Virus record (IMG/VR): IMGVR_UViG_2648501839_000008 | DNA: 64,000 bases | Direction: 5' to 3' (one strand) | Origin: a virus | Lineage: Duplodnaviria; Heunggongvirae; Uroviricota; Caudoviricetes | In this document: positions 20,718 to 63,541 of the stretch, one piece after another | How the letters are laid out: every line of letters starts with the position of its first letter | Position numbering within the stretch: the first letter of the stretch is position 1 | Notes under the pieces: model-generated | What the model was told of the DNA's origin: nothing | Database searches by the model: none | Seen by the model: the letters and a program-made list of their open reading frames with translations, nothing else | Translations under genes and position numbers: made by a program

Positions 20718-20889
20718 TTTTGACGTCCAATGTGCTTTGAAGTCGTTTCCTGTCTTCCTGTTTTGCCTTCTCTTCCATTGCTCGTCGCGCCGCATTTCCG
20801 CCCATCGTGTAAGCGCCGACCAGAACGAAAAGAACGGCAGCCAGCGTAATCAAAGCAACTTTTAGCTTTGTCATCAGGCTGCCTAGCAT
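20638..20889 (-). CDS. Putative i-spanin (Rz-like: N-terminal TM, periplasmic coiled coil)
   Basis: N-terminal TM LKVALITLAAVLFVLVGAY followed by charged helical region; immediately after endolysin gene. Confidence 0.5.
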   Translation of the reverse strand: MLGSLMTKLKVALITLAAVLFVLVGAYTMGGNAARRAMEEKAKQEDRKRLQSTLDVKNETLDELRSKDASTVHHELHNKWLRD

Positions 20890-20890
20890 A

Positions 20891-21610
20891 TTAGACCATC
20901 CCTTTCTGGTGTCTTCTTACCTGCGACCAGGCAATGAATCCGGCCACAACAATAGTGGCAATGCCGAAGATGATGCGTACTGTATCCCCGCTAGAGATAT
21001 GACCTTGTGCCTTATCCATAGCAGCGGAAACCTGCGGCATAACATCGGCCAGCTGCGCCAGACCAATACCTGCTGTAACAGTTGCGCCTGCAGTTTCTTT
21101 AGTTACAGGAACAGCCTTCACGGTTTTCACCGGCTTAACGACGCCAGCTCGACGCAGACCTTCCTCAATAACTTCTGCCGCATACCAGGTGTTCAGCGTT
21201 TTTAGCGGACCTCGCCCATTCTCATGGCGAATGATTGCCTCAACCAAAGGTCGAAGAATGTCGTAATCATGCAGATCGATGATCATGTCTGCGGTTACAC
21301 CAACGGCTTTAGACACCTCATTAATGTAGGCGTCAGTGTTGTTTTCATTCGGCGGTGCCCAACGTTCAATAACTTCACGAATGGTATCGATACTTGAGCC
21401 GTCTTTTGCGCGACGTTTGTCGTGGTAGGTAATTAGAGTCACCGCCAGCGCACGAATCCCCCAAACAGGGTCTTTAAACGTGCAAAAGCGCGGTTCGTCT
21501 GGATTCGCAATCAGACCTTGCCACGGTGATCCTTTATCAAGATTACCGGGGTTATTATTACGAATGCCTCTCGGAGTCTTCATCCTTGATCTCCTGTTAT
21601 TGCAGTCCAT
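20891..21610 (-). CDS. Putative endolysin / peptidoglycan hydrolase with C-terminal hydrophobic segment
   Basis: Position in lysis cassette; N-terminal NNPGN motif region; C-terminal TM-like IIFGIATIVVAGFIAW. Confidence 0.5.
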   Translation of the reverse strand: MDCNNRRSRMKTPRGIRNNNPGNLDKGSPWQGLIANPDEPRFCTFKDPVWGIRALAVTLITYHDKRRAKDGSSIDTIREVIERWAPPNENNTDAYINEVSKAVGVTADMIIDLHDYDILRPLVEAIIRHENGRGPLKTLNTWYAAEVIEEGLRRAGVVKPVKTVKAVPVTKETAGATVTAGIGLAQLADVMPQVSAAMDKAQGHISSGDTVRIIFGIATIVVAGFIAWSQVRRHQKGMV

Positions 21611-32141: not shown

Positions 32142-32732
32142 TTACATAAGCTGGTCGATGGTGATAGAAGAACTCACGACCTGTGAGCCAACTAAAATTT
32201 CCTCACCATAGATAAGCTGTACAGGGTTCCCCTGGTTTGTTGTGTTTTGAGGTCCATCGAAGTAATAAGAGTTCGAGTTATCCGCCTGCCTCACACTTTC
32301 GTTAGTGGCTTGCGGAGATATGATTTGCGCTATACCACCCATCATCAGTGACAAACCGAGAGGCGCAAGAGCGGGCACCCATATCGAGGCAACCATTAAT
32401 ACTGCTCCAACAACCGTCTGAAACCACCCAAAAGCAGATCCACCACTTCCTCGCGGAACAGGGGTAATGCGGATTTTGGCAATGTTGTCAGACTGCCCCA
32501 TCATCTGATATTCACTCTCGTCCACAGACCACTTGTGGCCCTGTTTATTGGTGATCTGGATGTGGTATCTGTCATAGGTTTTGATGTTGCGCTTCATCCA
32601 TGCTTTAAACCCAGGCTTGTTGGCCTCAATTAAATCCAGAGCCTGTTTTGTATTGCGCACCTTTAAATGCCAGTGGCGGCCAAAATGTTTGGCCATAGGG
32701 CCGCCAAGCTGCACATGAACTAACTCAGACAC
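32142..32732 (-). CDS. Tail assembly protein, lambda gpI-like
   Basis: Size, position after gpK-like gene, C-terminal hydrophobic segment. Confidence 0.65.
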   Translation of the reverse strand: MSELVHVQLGGPMAKHFGRHWHLKVRNTKQALDLIEANKPGFKAWMKRNIKTYDRYHIQITNKQGHKWSVDESEYQMMGQSDNIAKIRITPVPRGSGGSAFGWFQTVVGAVLMVASIWVPALAPLGLSLMMGGIAQIISPQATNESVRQADNSNSYYFDGPQNTTNQGNPVQLIYGEEILVGSQVVSSSITIDQLM

Positions 32733-33544
32733 GTCTCATCTCCCTTGAGCAAGTCTCTGTGACGCAAGTGATGCGTCGTATGTTTCTGATACATTCCGCC
32801 GTAATAAGCACGACAACTAAGGCGGTCGATCTGGTGATGAAGAATCATTCCATCGCCGATATAAACCGCGCAGTGGTCAGGCATTTTCCCGTATTGGATA
32901 AAGAAGATGTCCCCACGTTGAGGCTCTGTTCCGGGCGCAAGCCGTACCAATCCTTCGTTTCGGTAGTTCTGGTCGAGAATGTCGTTATCGCCGGTGTACC
33001 ACGATGGAATATGCAGGTGTGCGTTCGGGTTTAGTTCGACGTTAAACTCACGCTTCAAATAGTCCCGACACAACATCCAGCAATCGAATACGCCAAATAC
33101 ATACGGTCTGCCCAGGTATGGCATTTCGAAACCATCAGGTGTGATCACATTCATCTCGCTAAAATGGAAAGGGGCATCTCCCTCAACATTCTTGCGAATA
33201 GCCAGAATCATCCACGGAACTTCCGTCGCTTCGCAGCCTGCACGATCGGCATCAGATGCTTCTGCTGATTCATCAGTATGTGAATGCCAGATTGCGATAA
33301 CATCACCCGCATCCTCTGCCGCCATAATGTCGTCAACGTGCATTACAAAAGTGTTCTGCGGGTTCTCCGAAACATTCCGCGCTTCCATAAAGCGATATTT
33401 GTCGCCATTAGTTCTAACCAGAAAGCCACACGCTTCATTAGGGTAGCGATTTATGGCGCAGAGATAGATTTGCTGCATAACGTCAGAGCCAAGCTCAGGG
33501 ATTGCTTTATTACCCATACCGCGTAGCTCCAATAAATCCGCCAA
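32720..33544 (-). CDS. Tail assembly protein, lambda gpK-like (MPN/JAB plus NlpC/P60)
   Basis: JAB-like EACGF...HSH motif N-terminal; NlpC/P60-like Cys/His (FDCWMLCRDY ... HCAVYIG ... MILHH). Confidence 0.8.
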   Translation of the reverse strand: MADLLELRGMGNKAIPELGSDVMQQIYLCAINRYPNEACGFLVRTNGDKYRFMEARNVSENPQNTFVMHVDDIMAAEDAGDVIAIWHSHTDESAEASDADRAGCEATEVPWMILAIRKNVEGDAPFHFSEMNVITPDGFEMPYLGRPYVFGVFDCWMLCRDYLKREFNVELNPNAHLHIPSWYTGDNDILDQNYRNEGLVRLAPGTEPQRGDIFFIQYGKMPDHCAVYIGDGMILHHQIDRLSCRAYYGGMYQKHTTHHLRHRDLLKGDETCLS

Positions 33545-57729: not shown

Positions 57730-57735
57730 AATCGA

Positions 57736-57758
57736 GCGCCCACTATGGGCGCTTTTTT
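57736..57758 (+). terminator. Rho-independent terminator (GCGCCCA-CTA-TGGGCGC plus T6)
   Basis: gcgcccactatgggcgctttttt; a near-identical hairpin without T-run lies at 57240-57256. Confidence 0.6.
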
Positions 57759-58047
57759 CGTTTCCAATACTCCCACCATAACGCGCCATCATTAGCGCGT
57801 TTTTTATTGTCTTTAACTCACTCCAACAACATAAAAATAAGCGCCAAAATAACGCCATAGACGCGCTTTTATATCCTTACCAGTACATACCCATTACTTA
57901 ACACATTAACGCGCTTAAAACGCGTTATATTGCGCTATAGAGTATGGTTAATCATTGGCTTTTAGTCTTGCTTTATGATCCGCGTTTATTTGTCGGCGCG
58001 GATCGGCATTTTGTTTTGTTCCGTATCCGCTCGCGTATTATGTGCGC

Positions 58048-58217: not shown

Positions 58218-58333
58218 CAGCCGTTTCCCGAAAAAATCCTGGCCGTTTCCCGTCGGCTCATGAATGCTTTCCTCGCCGTTTCTGAAAATTTCCCTGCGGC
58301 AGCTGGTGGCTATAGATAAAGGGCCGTTTCTGG
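58218..58333. repeat. Iteron-like direct repeats, cluster 1 (4 copies of GCCGTTTCCC/GCCGTTTCTG)
   Basis: Copies at about 58221, 58244, 58276 and 58323. Confidence 0.45.
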
Positions 58334-58345
58334 CCCTCTTCTCAG

Positions 58346-58828
58346 TTACACGCCATCAAGGATGTGGATGCGGTTGCTTGCGTATACATTCAGCATAAAG
58401 TTAGCGCAAAACAGTTTCCATGTGTCAACGCCAGCGGTATACGTAATGTTTTTGCATTTAATCGCATTGTTGGCGATCCGCATCCCCTGCGATACTGCTT
58501 CATCGTCGGAAAATTTGAACGACGATTGAGTTTTAATCCAGAAAGAAATCTGCGTAGCGAACTCAATCAGCTTGGACTGGCAGAATCGCCCGGAGCGCAC
58601 CGGAAAGACGAACGTTCCGAATCCAGAATTTACCACATACGCTTTCTCAAATACCCGCGAGTAACGACGATTGCCAATGATGTCGCGTGCAATAATGCAT
58701 TTTTCTTGTGCTGACAGTTCTACCGTCTCATTGTCGCGCCATGCACCAAGTACTCGTTTTTCAATGTCAGAGAACGTTACAGCGATATTGCCATGTGCGG
58801 GTGCGTTTACAGTAGCGATAAAATTCAT
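58346..58828 (-). CDS. Hypothetical protein
   Basis: 160-aa ORF; O2 operator and conserved TTAATTATCG box upstream. Confidence 0.45.
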   Translation of the reverse strand: MNFIATVNAPAHGNIAVTFSDIEKRVLGAWRDNETVELSAQEKCIIARDIIGNRRYSRVFEKAYVVNSGFGTFVFPVRSGRFCQSKLIEFATQISFWIKTQSSFKFSDDEAVSQGMRIANNAIKCKNITYTAGVDTWKLFCANFMLNVYASNRIHILDGV

Positions 58829-58847
58829 GATTAATTCCTTATCGTAA

Positions 58848-58867
58848 ATAACAAATTGTTTTCTTGT
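58848..58867. promoter_or_regulatory. O2 palindromic operator
   Basis: aataacaaattgttttcttg. Confidence 0.45.
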
Positions 58868-59032
58868 TTGTGTTAATTATCGTTGTACGAATAAGGCGTC
58901 AAAGTGGAAAGTTGCGGTAGCCGGACGGGAACAGGTGGGTTTGTCGGTTGCCTGGAGGTAAGAGGTTGGTGTTTTTAGCCTGAGGGAAGCAGGATGGTCA
59001 TTTAAGGCCACCAGCATTGGTGACCTTATTCT

Positions 59033-59320
59033 TCAGTGGAGCAGACCGATGTCGATGGTATCCCCTGAATCATCCACACGGATCATCAGCATGGCAAAGG
59101 CGTTTAGTGGATAGCTTGCGTGCCATTCAGGGAAGCGGTCATCTCGCATGAAGTCGGCAATGTCGTAAACGCATCCCTCAAAGTGGAAGAATCGCGTGCT
59201 TACCTGCTCATCATAATCCACATGATCCATTTCTTGCTGTTCTGTTTCCGGCAAGTCCAGCCATGATTCGAGGAATACATTTTGTGCTTTGGTGGTAATG
59301 GTGAAATCAGTCATGAGCAT
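59033..59320 (-). CDS. Hypothetical acidic small protein
   Basis: 95-aa ORF; paralogous upstream region. Confidence 0.45.
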   Translation of the reverse strand: MLMTDFTITTKAQNVFLESWLDLPETEQQEMDHVDYDEQVSTRFFHFEGCVYDIADFMRDDRFPEWHASYPLNAFAMLMIRVDDSGDTIDIGLLH

Positions 59321-59331
59321 ATCCTCACTGC

Positions 59332-59351
59332 GTAAACATGTTGTTTTCTTG
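59332..59351. promoter_or_regulatory. O2 palindromic operator
   Basis: gtaaacatgttgttttcttg. Confidence 0.45.
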
Positions 59352-59442
59352 TTGTTGTAATTATCGCAGCGAGATAAAGGCAGAAAACAAATTGTTATCG
59401 GGCATAAGAAAATGGCGCGGTTTACGCGCCATTCAAAGAGGA

Positions 59443-59838
59443 TTAAGCGAATACGCTTTCAGGGATTAAGGTGCCGGCAGGAATGCCAGAGGTAATGCGC
59501 AGACCGTACTGGCCAATCCAGGTGGTGCTGGTGTTCAGGCTGGAGGCGAATACGGTGTTAACCATATTCATCATGGTTTCAAACACCTCTTCATCAACCT
59601 GGCGGAAGTAGTTCTCGATTTTCAGCAGCAGCGGGTCAGTTGCATCGAGAATGGACTGGTATTGAGTCGCGTACTCGCCGCCGGAGGCATCACCTTTACG
59701 CACGATCGTACTGGCCTGGACTTCGGCACCAGTTTCGGTGTTGTACGTAACAACGGTGATTTTTGCCACATTCTTACCTTCGGCGGTTTCAGAGGCATAG
59801 TAAACATCAACTGTCAGTTTTTCGCGTTTAACGGTCAT
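59443..59838 (-). CDS. Hypothetical protein
   Basis: Start placed at internal Met (MTVKREKL...) with GGAGAG RBS; ORF-track start 59904 would include the O1 motif. Confidence 0.45.
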   Translation of the reverse strand: MTVKREKLTVDVYYASETAEGKNVAKITVVTYNTETGAEVQASTIVRKGDASGGEYATQYQSILDATDPLLLKIENYFRQVDEEVFETMMNMVNTVFASSLNTSTTWIGQYGLRITSGIPAGTLIPESVFA

Positions 59839-59964
59839 TTCACTCTCCGTAGTGTATTGGTTATTTTTATATTCTATGATCGTAAGTATGTACTTACAAT
59901 ACAAAAAAGCCCCGTAAGGATGGCGGGGCTGTCGTACTGTCGACTAATTACCACTTGCACATTA

Positions 59965-60276
59965 TCAGGCTATTGCCATCACTGATGCTCTCTGAATTTC
60001 TTGCTGGGCCACGCGGTTAACTTCCATCAAGGCCAGTTCGAGCTGATGTTCCGGCCACATTCTTTGAAATGCCACCCATCCTTTTCCACGCTGGCGACGA
60101 ACATTCATTACATAACGAGTAAAGGTGTTTTTATCGAAAGACACCGCTGTTTCACGGAACAGACGAATAGAAGTTCCATTGGCAACGATGTCTAGCAAAG
60201 TTAATTGAGCAACCAGTGCAGGCTTCTCTTTTCTCTTCTGGTCTTTGTCCAGACCAAGAACCAATGATTTTTTCAT
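59965..60276 (-). CDS. Hypothetical small basic protein
   Basis: Start at MKKSLVLG with GGAG RBS; O2 operator just upstream. Confidence 0.4.
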   Translation of the reverse strand: MKKSLVLGLDKDQKRKEKPALVAQLTLLDIVANGTSIRLFRETAVSFDKNTFTRYVMNVRRQRGKGWVAFQRMWPEHQLELALMEVNRVAQQEIQRASVMAIA

Positions 60277-60285
60277 CACAACTCC

Positions 60286-60304
60286 GTAAACAACTTGTTT
60301 TCTC
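60286..60304. promoter_or_regulatory. O2 palindromic operator
   Basis: gtaaacaacttgttttctc. Confidence 0.45.
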
Positions 60305-60429
60305 AATGGCGTAAATAATACCAGTAAGAAAACGGCTACAAAGCATAATGATCAGGTGCATGATCGATATGCAGGTTCCTCCCAGCGGCTATAGAGAAAT
60401 TAAGCCAGCAATGCTGGCTTTGGTTGGGA

Positions 60430-60780
60430 TTACGCGAATACCTCAAGAAACTCCTGAACGTCCCAATGCTGGACGAGGTGAAGATAGACCTTAGAAATCA
60501 CGTCATTTTCGCTATCGCATGTGAAGTAGTACTTCTGGCTGCGGTTGTATGTGTCCACACAAAATTCGCTCATATCCATAAAGTCAGCATCTTCACCCAT
60601 GTCGCAAATCATCAAAGCAGGTGCGTCATCACGAGTCATCAGCTCAAGCACCCACCGCGAATTGATCAGAGTGGAAGACCAACCTTCTAACTCATAAAAC
60701 TGATCAAACTCTTTTTGAGTTAATTTCTTGATTTGGTTGATGTCGATATTTGCAAACATAAAGCAATCCTTAAACAACAT
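60430..60780 (-). CDS. Hypothetical acidic small protein
   Basis: 116-aa ORF, strongly acidic. Confidence 0.45.
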   Translation of the reverse strand: MLFKDCFMFANIDINQIKKLTQKEFDQFYELEGWSSTLINSRWVLELMTRDDAPALMICDMGEDADFMDMSEFCVDTYNRSQKYYFTCDSENDVISKVYLHLVQHWDVQEFLEVFA

Positions 60781-60789
60781 GTTTTCTTG
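60770..60789. promoter_or_regulatory. O2 palindromic operator
   Basis: ttaaacaacatgttttcttg. Confidence 0.45.
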
Positions 60790-61109
60790 ATGGTGTTATT
60801 ATCGCAATAACGCACAGGCGAAAAAGGATTTTATTCCGGTGAATGTGGTTTTGGCAGTGAGTTTTCAGGTTCAGTACCGAGTACACTTTTTACATTATTC
60901 TGATTTAGTGGCTGGTGGGCAGAATAATCCTCTCCCCGAAAACCTACTGAAATCGATTGTGACCCGTTGGCTGTCTGGCACAATTACGCTGTAGCTGGGC
61001 ATTCAGAGGGAATCCAGCGGTAAGCAAGTCCGCCTACGTGAGCGCCTCTCTTCTTCCCGCACATTACAGGTGGGTAGCCGCAACTCTCCCTCTCGCTATA
61101 CCGGTACGC

Positions 61110-61246
61110 CACCTTTCCTGAACCGGCATCGAGCCTTCTCCCGAAATCCACACAGGCAACTCGACCGTTTCCCTGAAAACCTCCAGCCGTTCCCCGAAGG
61201 CAACCCAGCCGTTTCTGTAGCGGGATGCAGCCTTTTCCCTGTATGG
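61110..61246. repeat. Iteron-like direct repeats, cluster 2 (about 6 copies of AGCCGTTTCCC-GAA-type unit at 22-25 bp spacing)
   Basis: cacctttcctgaacc, agccttctcccgaaatcc, cgaccgtttccctgaaaacc, cagccgttccccgaagg, cagccgtttctgtagcg, cagccttttccctgtatgg. Confidence 0.45.
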
Positions 61247-61379
61247 ACCGAAGGCTGACCGTAGGGGTGTTACGGGGGATAAAATCAGGAGTTGAATAAA
61301 TACGAAAAAGGAGGCGACACCCCTCCTTCCCTCCCCACTTATACATACCTGGCTTCTTCGCTATGCATGTTGTGTTTTA

Positions 61380-62300
61380 TCTGTCTCAACCTCTCTATAG
61401 GCGTTAATGCTCACTCCTTCCAGAATGTTCTATACGGCGACTATTTCTGTTGGTGAATTGGGTGTGTTGTTTTCTCTGTCGGTGTATGTGGTTTCGTTCG
61501 TTTTGCGGTGGTTCTTCTATGGGGTGTTCTCGTCGTTTTGGTGATTGTTCTTCTCCATGTATGGAGTAATGGCAGGTGGGCGAATCCTTTCGTTATTGTG
61601 TTTGAGTTGTTTGTCTGGAGTGTGTGAAGGGCTTTTGTAGTTATTCGTGTATTGGGTAATGGCGTTTCCCGTGATTGTTATGTTTCGTGTCTTTTGGGAT
61701 TGAGAGAATCCTTGCGGTTACAGGCTTCGTTGGGTTTTCAGTGATTCTGGTGTTTCTTCGCTGTTTGGGGAATGGCGTGTCGTGGGTATCGCGCGTATGA
61801 ATGTTTTCGGATTGCCTGTGAAAGTTAGGTTGGCTGTCCGGTAGCCTGGGGAGAAGAGGTGGGTCTTTTCGGTAGCCTGCCATAAAGAGGTTGGTTGTTT
61901 TGGGGAATGGCATGTGTGTTATTTAGTTGTTTTGTTATAGCTGAAAATAAGTTGTTTATATAGTTATGTAACGCAATGGGAGTGATTTTGAGCGTGTGTT
62001 TTTTCTTGGTAGTGTGTTGGGTCGTCTGTGGTGAAAATTGGACGCTGTGGCGCTGTCTGCTGCGTAGAATTACGGGTATAAGAAGTGATGTGTGAATACG
62101 TCAATTTTTTAGACCAAATCGGGTGAAAGCGTTGACGTTTCGTTGATCTGTTATTTAGTTGTTTTCTTATTGGTATAAACAACGTTAACCTATTGATATT
62201 TAAAGGTGTGATTGCAGGTATGGAAGAAGAGTAGTGGCGATCAACGGATTCTTATAGAAAAGAATCAAATTGTGACCGCCATTATCAACTGATTGATTAA
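61380..62300. other. ORF-free, strongly GT-skewed region with imperfect repeats
   Basis: No ORF of 60 aa or more on either strand; repeated GGGTAATGGCG-like and GGTAGCCTGGGGAGAAGAGGTGGG-like units. Confidence 0.4.
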
Positions 62301-62311
62301 GCTAATTACAC

Positions 62312-63541
62312 TCAAACATCCCCGTTCTTAATCCACTGCCTGACTTGCTCGTCTTGTGCGACTTCTTTCTCATGTTTGGCAATATACAAGTCTGGCAATA
62401 GGGGTGGAGCGAATTCAGGCTCTGTCGCACGCCACTTTTCATATGCGTCACGCATGGATTTCTCAACATTCCAATGCTCCAACTCTTGGTATTCAATCGG
62501 CCAGTTATCCTGCAATCTCTTCACTGCATTAGCCAGGTCGTATCGGAAGTAAGGATTAAGACCAATGAAATTACCAGCCAGCATGTCATCAACCTCCTTC
62601 ACTCTGGCAATCTTAGAAAACTTACCAATAGCAATGTTGAGGTCCCAATCTGACACGAACAACAAAAGTGCTGCAAATGCCAGAAACTTAGCTTCCCCGT
62701 ATGCTCTGTCGCTAACCGTTTTTGTCTGAAACTCAATGTAATTGCCCATCACAAAACTAGTAAGCTTACAGGTATTACTTATCTCGTCCTCCAAATGCGA
62801 TGGATCGAGAATTGTGCGGTCACGATTATTGTTTATGTGTTCTAAGATTACAGCAATGTCTCTATGTGAGACTGAAATTTCACGCAATTGCTGGAGAGTC
62901 TTGATGTGAACTCTTAGCACCTCTTTGTCAATCGCACGCTTCCAAGAAAAACCAGGCACAGTAACCTGAATGGGCGCGAAAGGTAGAATATCAGGAGTTG
63001 TCCATGCTAGATATGCATCACGTAACCCACTAATATAATAAAGCCAGTCTAAATGCTCGCTTTCTAACCATATTTCAAATGTGGAATCCTTTCGCTTATT
63101 GAAGAACCATTCCCTCATCTGCCACATTTTTTCTTGAGTAAATATCCCTTCCTGTATGCCGGCACAGACCAGCTTTCGTATTACCTGCGAATACTTTGTT
63201 CGATCTTTTGTGAATGAGACAAGGTGCTGCTTCACCTCAGATGTTAGTCTATCTCCATAGAAATCACATGATGGATGATGGCCTTGACCATCTTCACCGG
63301 TAAATCTGAAATGCGCCTTCTTGTGATAGCCACCATTCCTAGTGGCTCTAACGAACGAACCACCTCCAACTTTGCAAATGGGGCAGATGATATCGTCACG
63401 GGCAATAGCATGAACCGAGCTGTCATCTAAATTCTTTAGCGCCAAGTACTGCTCAGGATCGACTTCTTTTTGTAACGATTTTGAAAAAGCGGTATCAGTC
63501 ATTCCAAGCTCCGAGCAAGGGGTTATTTGTTCAATTATCAT
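62312..63541 (-). CDS. Hypothetical protein with Cys/His zinc-binding-like motif
   Basis: 409-aa ORF; CPICKVGGGSF...HKKAHFRF...HHPSCDFY. Confidence 0.5.
   Translation of the reverse strand: MIIEQITPCSELGMTDTAFSKSLQKEVDPEQYLALKNLDDSSVHAIARDDIICPICKVGGGSFVRATRNGGYHKKAHFRFTGEDGQGHHPSCDFYGDRLTSEVKQHLVSFTKDRTKYSQVIRKLVCAGIQEGIFTQEKMWQMREWFFNKRKDSTFEIWLESEHLDWLYYISGLRDAYLAWTTPDILPFAPIQVTVPGFSWKRAIDKEVLRVHIKTLQQLREISVSHRDIAVILEHINNNRDRTILDPSHLEDEISNTCKLTSFVMGNYIEFQTKTVSDRAYGEAKFLAFAALLLFVSDWDLNIAIGKFSKIARVKEVDDMLAGNFIGLNPYFRYDLANAVKRLQDNWPIEYQELEHWNVEKSMRDAYEKWRATEPEFAPPLLPDLYIAKHEKEVAQDEQVRQWIKNGDV

Follow-up and report, generated by a model that had tools for sequence, protein, structure and literature searches.

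We describe here a non-coding, strand-asymmetric tract at positions 61380-62300 of a 64,000-nucleotide stretch of tailed-phage DNA (Caudoviricetes; IMG/VR record IMGVR_UViG_2648501839_000008), which at its full length is referred to as the window. The window derives from a phage-plasmid of the SSU5/pHCM2/pECOH89 type. Phage-plasmids of the SSU5/pHCM2 type are common in clinical Escherichia, Klebsiella, Enterobacter, and Salmonella and carry resistance genes, such as CTX-M-15, and their regulation is almost unstudied. The tract is as conserved as its flanking genes, but it has no annotated feature in most records, those annotated by PGAP included.

An earlier note, made from the letters alone, had drawn attention to a strong G+T bias of the plus strand, and this bias is real: G+T amounts to 67.8% over 61380-62300 and to 74.4% in the core at 61440-61920 (A 12.7, C 12.9, G 33.7, T 40.7%). 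The best 480-nt segment (start 61457) has a G+T fraction of 0.75 compared to a window-wide mean of 0.501 (standard deviation 0.035; z ~7), and the highest value elsewhere in the 64 kb is 0.59, which makes the tract the sole region of this kind. All genes flanking the tract are on the minus strand, on which the tract has 30-34% C and 13% G; as RNA made from this strand, the core consists of 34% C, 41% A, 13% G, and 13% U. The gene-free gap around the tract extends from 60781 to 62311 (~1.5 kb) and is thus larger than the 0.9 kb originally noted. Within the gap, the GC skew changes its sign at ~61340, and repeat units of the R1 type (described below) are oppositely oriented on the two sides of this point.

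Conservation, cargo genes, and coding potential

The tract region matches phage-plasmids of the SSU5/pHCM2/pECOH89 type at 94-98% identity; the matches comprise the Escherichia phages Cyrano, PhiR41_1, and CMS-2020a and ~250 plasmids, nearly all of which are non-mobilizable and ~110 kb in size. In PLSDB, a sensitive search matched the 1.5-kb gap to 840 plasmids, whose hosts include Klebsiella, Escherichia, Enterobacter, Salmonella, Citrobacter, Cronobacter, and Shigella; the gap is also present in phage SSU5, in Klebsiella phages, and in Kluyvera and Buttiauxella genomes. Among 5,426 complete Escherichia coli genomes, 239 have the tract, plasmid-borne every time. The position, length, and skew of the gap are kept across at least seven genera, and the G+T skew is retained in every lineage, including the diverged homologues. 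Between lineages, the gap is ~67-72% identical over its full length, which equals or exceeds the identity of the flanking coding genes, several of which have been replaced between lineages. When more distant relatives were sought by means of a neighboring protein, only the same lineages were returned, all with at least 67% identity. Yersinia pestis pMT1 and a few other relatives are without the tract, yet they have kept a second cluster of its R2 repeat. Conservation in related genomes, a check that the earlier note had proposed, is therefore strong and extends over hundreds of SSU5-type phage-plasmids; the tract is real, conserved, and under selection.

PGAP has placed little or no annotation in the gap in plasmids from five genera, and the few calls disagree between pipelines. 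A literature search for an origin, a non-coding RNA, or a transcriptome of this phage-plasmid family returned only a gene-level table for the Cyrano lysogen LF82. In the literature, we found no description of this element, which is conserved, non-coding, and strand-asymmetric and belongs to a phage-plasmid family that is common in clinical bacteria.

The tract adjoins a cargo hot spot that is bounded by the invariant inverted repeat at 62235-62281. The gene or genes to its right vary between relatives (loci L001-L015) and encode a 409-aa protein (phrog_12525), a coiled-coil protein, a DUF4145 protein, or a DUF262 protein together with type I restriction-modification; some of these cargo genes are on the opposite strand. 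The 409-aa protein had no match to a defense family. In pECOH89, almost all genes are on the minus strand.

Some occurrences of the tract deserve separate mention. Two loci labelled 'Bacillota MAG' (L138) and Catenulispora yoronensis (L158) hold enterobacterial phage-plasmid sequence, which probably reflects contamination or mis-binning. In the Klebsiella pneumoniae plasmid p3IncF (190 kb; locus L014, 2717-3466) and ~8 similar large plasmids, a Klebsiella-type tract is cut by an insertion sequence in the middle of the G+T-rich core, and the cut fragment has been carried, together with the DUF262 and type I restriction-modification cargo, into large non-phage plasmids. We had considered this partial copy as a hint of a mobile module and rejected the idea, as it is merely a fragment truncated by the insertion sequence.

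Contrary to the earlier note, the tract is not free of open reading frames (ORFs) of at least 60 aa: the minus strand has two, 61641-61913 (90 aa) and 61964-62182 (72 aa). However, the three ORFs of the gap matched no Pfam or PHROG family, and three-base periodicity of substitutions was absent in every 90-column block, with 12 and then with 24 non-redundant homologues. In the absence of family matches and of a coding signature, the description as non-coding stands. A disguised or frameshifted gene, the explanation that the note itself had set against a non-coding element, is rejected by the indel lengths (most indels in the gap are not multiples of three), the codon-phase tests, and the ORF conservation, as well as by Pfam and PHROGs: there is no codon signal and the ORFs are disrupted. 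A hidden gene is effectively excluded.

Repeats and putative control sites

The imperfect repeats that had been claimed for the tract exist, although they are degenerate. The unit GGGTAATGGCG has one exact copy at 61654 and variants at 61564, 61767, and 61902. Its pattern, R1 (GGGNAANGGC; GGGnAAnGGC type), has seven exact matches in the 64 kb compared to 1.3 expected, all within 58220-61911. SSU5-type relatives have up to seven copies of R1, and the string TAATGGC is unchanging in two of the copies across the alignment. The second repeat, R2, is a 31-bp unit (GGTAGCCTG-N5-AAGAGGTGGGT) with good copies at 61840 and 61871 and a degenerate third at ~61806; at up to 3 mismatches, it has four matches in the window, where none is expected. 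The related copy noted at 58915-58990 corresponds to R2 copies at 58916 and 58946, which belong to a second cluster, here called site B, 2.9 kb from the R2 cluster of the tract. Site B lies between a hairpin after the gene 59033-59320 (minus) and the promoter of the gene 58346-58828 (minus), and it is this cluster that is also found in pMT1. Both half-sites of R2 are invariant in 12 sequences from all lineages, whereas the 5-nt spacer varies, and at each of the two loci the units are spaced by 30-31 bp, i.e., ~three helical turns. The repeats have degenerated too far for Tandem Repeats Finder, which reports no array in the tract. A boxA-like CUCUUUA in R2 was considered as a Nus-factor site and dropped, since it is restricted to the E. 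coli lineage.

Read in gene sense, i.e., from right to left, the cargo stop at 62312 is followed by the inverted repeat (62281-62235), a half-copy of an operator-like motif (62181-62145), a −35-like block, another half-copy (61949-61913), the three R2 units, ~400 nt of CA-rich sequence with R1, a hairpin (61331-61305), the G-rich left half of the gap, and the promoter of the gene at 60780. The conserved −35-like block holds two back-to-back −35-like hexamers. The leftward promoter-like site at ~62100 has a position weight matrix (PWM) score with a median of 7.7 and a minimum of 5.7 in the aligned lineages, compared to 6.7 for the real promoter of a neighboring gene at ~60805, and both of its hexamers are in invariant columns; because its −10 element is without the usual final T, we regard it as a putative promoter. 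The rightward promoter-like site is conserved as well (PWM median 9.4, minimum 6.4). Two AT-rich segments, 61913-61975 and 62145-62205, are in the 99th percentile of 60-bp duplex instability, although other parts of the window are less stable still. The inverted repeat at the right edge has a consensus energy of −11.2 on the minus strand, and its single mismatch becomes a G·U pair on the minus-strand RNA only. A sigma54 reading of this repeat was rejected for wrong spacing, as judged by eye; no scan was run. The coordinates are collected in Table 1.

Table 1. Features of the tract and its surroundings, in window positions unless pECOH89 is named
Feature	Position	Strand	Remarks
R1 units (GGGnAAnGGC type)	61564, 61654, 61767, 61902 (span 61564-61911)	plus	
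R2 iterons	61806-61896	plus	three direct 31-bp units, GTAGCCTG-N5-A.GAGGT.GG, first degenerate
Site B (second R2 cluster)	58912-58990	plus	three tandem units, copies at 58916 and 58946 among them
Inverted R1-like units (GGGAAAAGGC type)	61164, 61186, 61230	minus	left half of gap
Left half of gap	60840-61300		C-rich on plus strand, G-rich in gene-sense reading; inverted R1-like units and Chi at 60911-60918
Upstream cargo gene	62312-63541	minus	stop codon directly before tract (gene sense)
Putative sigma70-like promoter into tract	62075-62104	minus	−35 TTGACG 62104-62099, 18-nt spacer, −10 TATACC 62080-62075
7-bp inverted repeat ACGTCAA..27 nt..TTGACGT	62098-62160	plus	rightward promoter-like site, −35 62132-62137, −10 ~62154-62160
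AT-rich half-copy of operator/5′ untranslated region motif of neighboring promoters (AAAACAACTAAATAACA)	61913-61949	minus	families D1/D7
Second AT-rich half-copy of operator/5′ untranslated region motif	62145-62181	minus	
Invariant inverted repeat TGGCGATCA..29 nt..TGACCGCCA	62235-62281	minus	right edge, beside variable cargo genes
Terminator-like hairpin and U-run	61305-61331	minus	downstream end of tract; strong in E. coli lineage, weak in others
RepB plasmid replicon	pECOH89, 0.1-1.3 kb		
Replication genes	pECOH89, 9-32 kb		
Structural and terminase genes	pECOH89, 38-65 kb		
Tract gap	pECOH89, 76.8-78.3 kb		

Three observations concern the surroundings of the tract. First, a palindrome, AAGAAAACAA-nn-TTGTTTA, is found ~9 nt downstream of a GATAAT/TATAAT −10 element before many minus-strand genes across the phage-plasmid, namely, at 60788, 60304, 59350, 58865, 49749, 19064, 15308, and 259 on the minus strand of the window and at 3432, 31811, 34632, 74636, 76302, 80018, 92787, and 93516 of pECOH89; it has the appearance of a repressor operator dispersed in the manner of the P1 C1 operators. 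Second, GCCGTTTCCC-type units are clustered, together with a Chi site (58303-58310), in the segment 58210-58330 behind the last minus-strand gene; the paralogue of this segment is the left half of the gap (60990-61260), for which the Chi site lies at 60911. Third, two strong terminator hairpins with T-runs lie at 57735-57810, where a short block of plus-strand genes meets a block of minus-strand genes.

Possible Rho-dependent termination

In composition, the minus strand of the tract resembles a Rho utilization (rut) region. Following the method of Nadiras et al. 2018 (PMC6144790), C>G bubbles were determined with a 78-nt sliding window. Right after the cargo stop, the minus strand has one uninterrupted bubble from 62311 to 61388 (~925 nt, 847 window starts). 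Its area is 15,594 %xbp, 4.3 times that of the next largest in the 64 kb, and %C−%G averages 18.4 over it. The second-largest minus-strand bubble is site B; hence, the two largest bubbles are exactly the two loci that share R2, and both come after a gene stop and a hairpin that lacks a U-tract. A bubble of 8,000-16,800 %xbp is found in the same place in nearly all of ~57 related loci with enough upstream sequence. In the study of Nadiras et al., all tested templates with a bubble of >78 bp or >700 %xbp gave Rho-dependent termination, and terminator strength went up with %C, %CA, %AAC, %ACA, and %CAC and down with %G, %GG, %GT, %GTG, and %GGT (PMC6144790). These descriptors are all extreme in the tract, in the direction of strong terminators: on the minus strand, CA (12.8 versus 6.7%), AAC (5.5 versus 2.0), ACA (5.8 versus 1.8), and CAC (4.5 versus 1.1) are enriched, and GG (1.8 versus 5.3), GTG (0.1 versus 1.4), and GGT (0.35 versus 1.5) are depleted. 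Furthermore, the first 110 nt past the cargo stop (62290-62180) contain a [(YC)N9-13] chain with n of at least 7, as found in 0.4% of 101-nt windows, and there are 113 YC dimers in 851 nt compared to a median of 81; site B has a [(YC)N9-13]7 chain and the top YC-dimer count in the window.

A transcript of the tract would also be unstructured. RNAalifold, run on 24 non-redundant homologues in sliding windows of 150 columns on both strands, gave consensus energies of ~0 to −9 kcal/mol per 150 columns, with no covariation and no conserved helices on either strand; the two local exceptions are the hairpin at 61331-61305 (minus) and the inverted repeat at the right end, 62235-62281. Single-sequence folds of the whole tract were no better than shuffles (z of −2.15 for the minus strand and +1.78 for the plus strand). 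Taken together, the features of a rut site are present: a bubble of at least ~80 nt, spaced YC dimers with n of at least 4, and an unstructured, untranslated RNA. Shorter C-rich, G-poor tracts after intrinsic-terminator hairpins are found in pECOH89 (L159) behind dnaE, grxA, and a DUF2971 gene (11540-11660, 20850-21060, and 32575-32770), and their recurrence suggests a repeated design of a hairpin plus rut.

The published transcriptome of the LF82 lysogen, which carries Cyrano, bears on the fate of transcripts that enter the tract (PMC9928086, S1 Table; RNA sequencing in five conditions, with gene-level values given as log2 of 5 plus fragments per kilobase per million [log2(5+fpkm)] and with strand-specificity unstated). 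The upstream cargo gene CYRAN_102 has values of 5.6-9.2, while CYRAN_103, an annotated pseudo-ORF that corresponds to 62192-61836, stays at the floor of 2.32 in LB and does not rise above 4.3 under any of the conditions (PMC9928086); in condition B6, the drop from CYRAN_102 to CYRAN_103 is ~80-fold. CYRAN_104 (61346-60942) is low, and downstream cassettes, e.g., CYRAN_105, rise independently in the macrophage conditions (PMC9928086). These gene-level data agree with transcription that ends efficiently at the right edge and with silence of the tract in the lysogen, and they argue against abundant lysogenic RNA from the tract. Elsewhere in the same prophage, CYRAN_43 (Cyrano, OV696614), which encodes a small hypothetical protein and lies between a glutaredoxin and an integrase gene, is expressed ~720-fold above the prophage background during lysogeny of LF82.

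Our preferred reading, held tentatively and quite possibly wrong, is that the tract is a zone of Rho-dependent termination or attenuation at the edge of the cargo hot spot, in which the embedded motifs possibly have a modulating role. In this model, an RNA polymerase moving leftward, having started either in the variable cargo gene that the lysogen expresses or at the putative, repressed promoter of the tract itself (~62100), would expose naked CA-rich RNA on which Rho could load. Transcription would then halt short of the early gene cassettes that are under repressor control (60780 and beyond), and the tract would insulate or attenuate transcription at the border of the cargo hot spot. R1 and R2 may be sites where a phage factor modulates termination, comparable to the lambda nut sites, which are located within the rut sites of tR1.

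Several points weigh against termination by Rho as the function of the tract. Some 80 nt suffice for a rut site, and the ~ten-fold excess of a 925-nt tract is unexplained. The near-invariant R1 and R2 motifs with their variable spacers point to sequence-specific recognition, which Rho does not need. The drop in the RNA sequencing data occurs at the very start of the tract, and therefore, the core may not be needed for it; in the core, moreover, the YC chain is ordinary (n = 4) and most C residues come after an A. It would also have to be explained why a conserved promoter should fire into a terminator zone, and lineages with cargo on the opposite strand still retain the tract. Finally, an excess of G<->T substitutions was not seen in the tract alignment; as G/T identity is not preferentially kept, there is no sign of a purely compositional constraint, and selection purely on composition was rejected on this ground.

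Alternative explanations and known systems

In the main rival reading, with which the invariance of the R2 half-sites would agree, the tract is a cis-acting DNA element bound by a protein of the phage-plasmid, either a lytic origin or a regulatory or centromere-like array; we consider this somewhat unlikely. An association with an origin was also among the options of the earlier note. As a lytic origin, the most concrete version of this reading, it would combine the three 31-bp iterons with an AT-rich unwinding segment and with repressor-controlled divergent promoters for transcriptional activation, and the second iteron cluster 2.9 kb away would act like P4 crr or the second origin of SPP1. 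Consistent with such a role are the 30-31-bp period of R2 with its variable spacer, the unstable AT-rich segments that adjoin the iterons, the operator-like half-sites and the predicted divergent promoter pair alongside, the coincidence of the flip in R1 orientation with the switch of the GC skew, and the silence in the lysogen, as expected of a repressed lytic origin. Furthermore, the RepB replicon is distant (~77 kb by the numbering of pECOH89, ~34 kb when measured around the circle), our literature search found no described lytic origin for this family, and pMT1 lives as a plasmid without the tract. However, the depletion of A and C on one strand runs through the spacers as well, a pattern that binding sites in double-stranded DNA would not call for. 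There are tandem direct repeats at helical-turn spacing, but no initiator gene adjoins them: the neighbors encode small proteins of unknown function, and helicase, primase, and dnaE are ~45-65 kb away. The cumulative GC skew of pECOH89 shows no turn of the origin type, and the AT-rich segments are, as mentioned, not the least stable ones. By eye, neither the sequence nor the alignment had a conserved array of DnaA boxes, GATC clusters, KOPS, or matS, for which no formal scan or pattern search was run. When the C-rich left half and the G-rich right half were compared for complementarity, long-range pairing, or mirror symmetry, they exceeded shuffles only marginally (z ~2.5), and T-tracts and G-runs had no significant helical or other periodicity.

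It is also imaginable, but unlikely in our judgment, that the tract, rather than being a passive terminator, is a strand-asymmetric control element of the lytic switch of a kind not seen before. It would then be either a lytic iteron origin, activated by transcription under repressor control, in which the skew keeps both unwound strands unstructured or a gene for an unstructured CA-rich RNA that titrates Rho or Hfq in lytic growth. The RNA alone, an unstructured, CA-rich transcript of ~750 nt that would be made from the 62100 promoter in lytic growth and would soak up Rho or Hfq (via ARN-type triplets) in trans, is a poor candidate. The conserved promoter-like site does point into the tract, the terminator-like hairpin at 61331-61305 could end the transcript in the E. 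coli lineage, and the RNA is very rich in AAC, ACA, and CAC. On the other hand, the −10 element (TATACC) is weak, the terminator is not conserved beyond the E. coli lineage, and all five RNA sequencing conditions, among them those in which neighboring early genes rise 8-30 fold, leave the first 235 nt at or near the detection floor; nor is there a precedent for such an RNA.

The G/T-rich codons of the plus strand (F, L, V, W, G, C) could encode small hydrophobic, toxin-like or membrane peptides, and the best candidate is a hydrophobic ORF of 28-45 aa at 61407/61458-61544 ('GLFSLPAYVVSFFLRWFF..SSFW', ..GLFSLSVYVVSFVLRWFFYGVFSSFW). Its peptide sequence and stop position recur in many lineages, the first three indels of the tract are in frame (3, 12, and 3 nt), and TAATGGC in several R1 units reads as a stop followed by a start. 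Nevertheless, its variable columns are spread evenly across the codon positions (24/21/24), two lineages have nonsense codons and one has a frameshift, and SSU5 has lost the start codon; the other small ORFs vary in length and frame between lineages, and none has a family match. This explanation is very improbable and largely refuted.

A long structured non-coding RNA, which the earlier note had suggested and which conservation without coding would allow, is effectively excluded: the covariance and structure predictions that had been proposed as a check gave no covariation and no conserved fold on either strand, the folding energy was no better than that of shuffles, pairing partners are scarce in a strand with 13% G and 13% U (or, on the other strand, 13% C and 13% A), Rfam at E<=1 had no match in the gap and the ARAGORN scan no tRNA or tmRNA, and the right part of the tract is at or near the detection floor in the lysogen. 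The same holds for a packaging or Chi site, since Chi (GCTGGTGG) is absent from 61380-62300 (nearest at 60911 and 58303) and, in pECOH89, ~12 kb separate the tract from the terminase genes, so that the suggested recombination or packaging site finds no support.

If the tract is indeed a Rho-dependent insulator, exchangeable, lysogen-expressed cargo could sit upstream of repressed early genes without activating them, and the tract would offer an unusually extreme natural rut region for the study of Rho loading. If instead it serves as the lytic origin or binds a protein at an array of sites, a core function so far missing in this phage-plasmid family would have been located.

Known Rho terminators and rut regions, such as lambda tR1 (in which rutA and rutB flank the nutR boxB), and Rho-dependent attenuating leaders resemble the tract in being C-rich, G-poor, CA-rich, unstructured, and untranslated. 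The resemblance extends to its location, which is immediately past a stop codon and a hairpin and has a promoter on one side and early phage genes on the other, and, as with nut in tR1, specific motifs are embedded in a rut-like sequence. Unlike a normal rut region, it is ~ten times longer and has iteron-like repeats as well as promoter-like and operator-like modules of its own, and its dependence on Rho is something we infer.

The direct repeats at helical-turn spacing beside AT-rich DNA are likewise reminiscent of iteron origins, i.e., lambda ori, P4 ori/crr, SPP1 oriL/oriR, and P1 oriL under C1 control. The resemblance to these origins extends to a second cluster a few kilobases away, to operator-like sites and promoters close by, and to the silence in the lysogen. 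Unlike them, the tract has no adjacent initiator gene, only three repeats per cluster, and a pervasive strand skew. By analogy only, the tract may also be compared to herpesvirus oriLyt, which is a kilobase-scale, repeat-rich, non-coding, and strand-skewed region with bidirectional promoters in a system with separate latent (episomal) and lytic replication. The biology, however, is unrelated, and whereas the oriLyt transcript is G-rich and forms R-loops, the better-supported direction of transcription through the tract would give a C-rich RNA.

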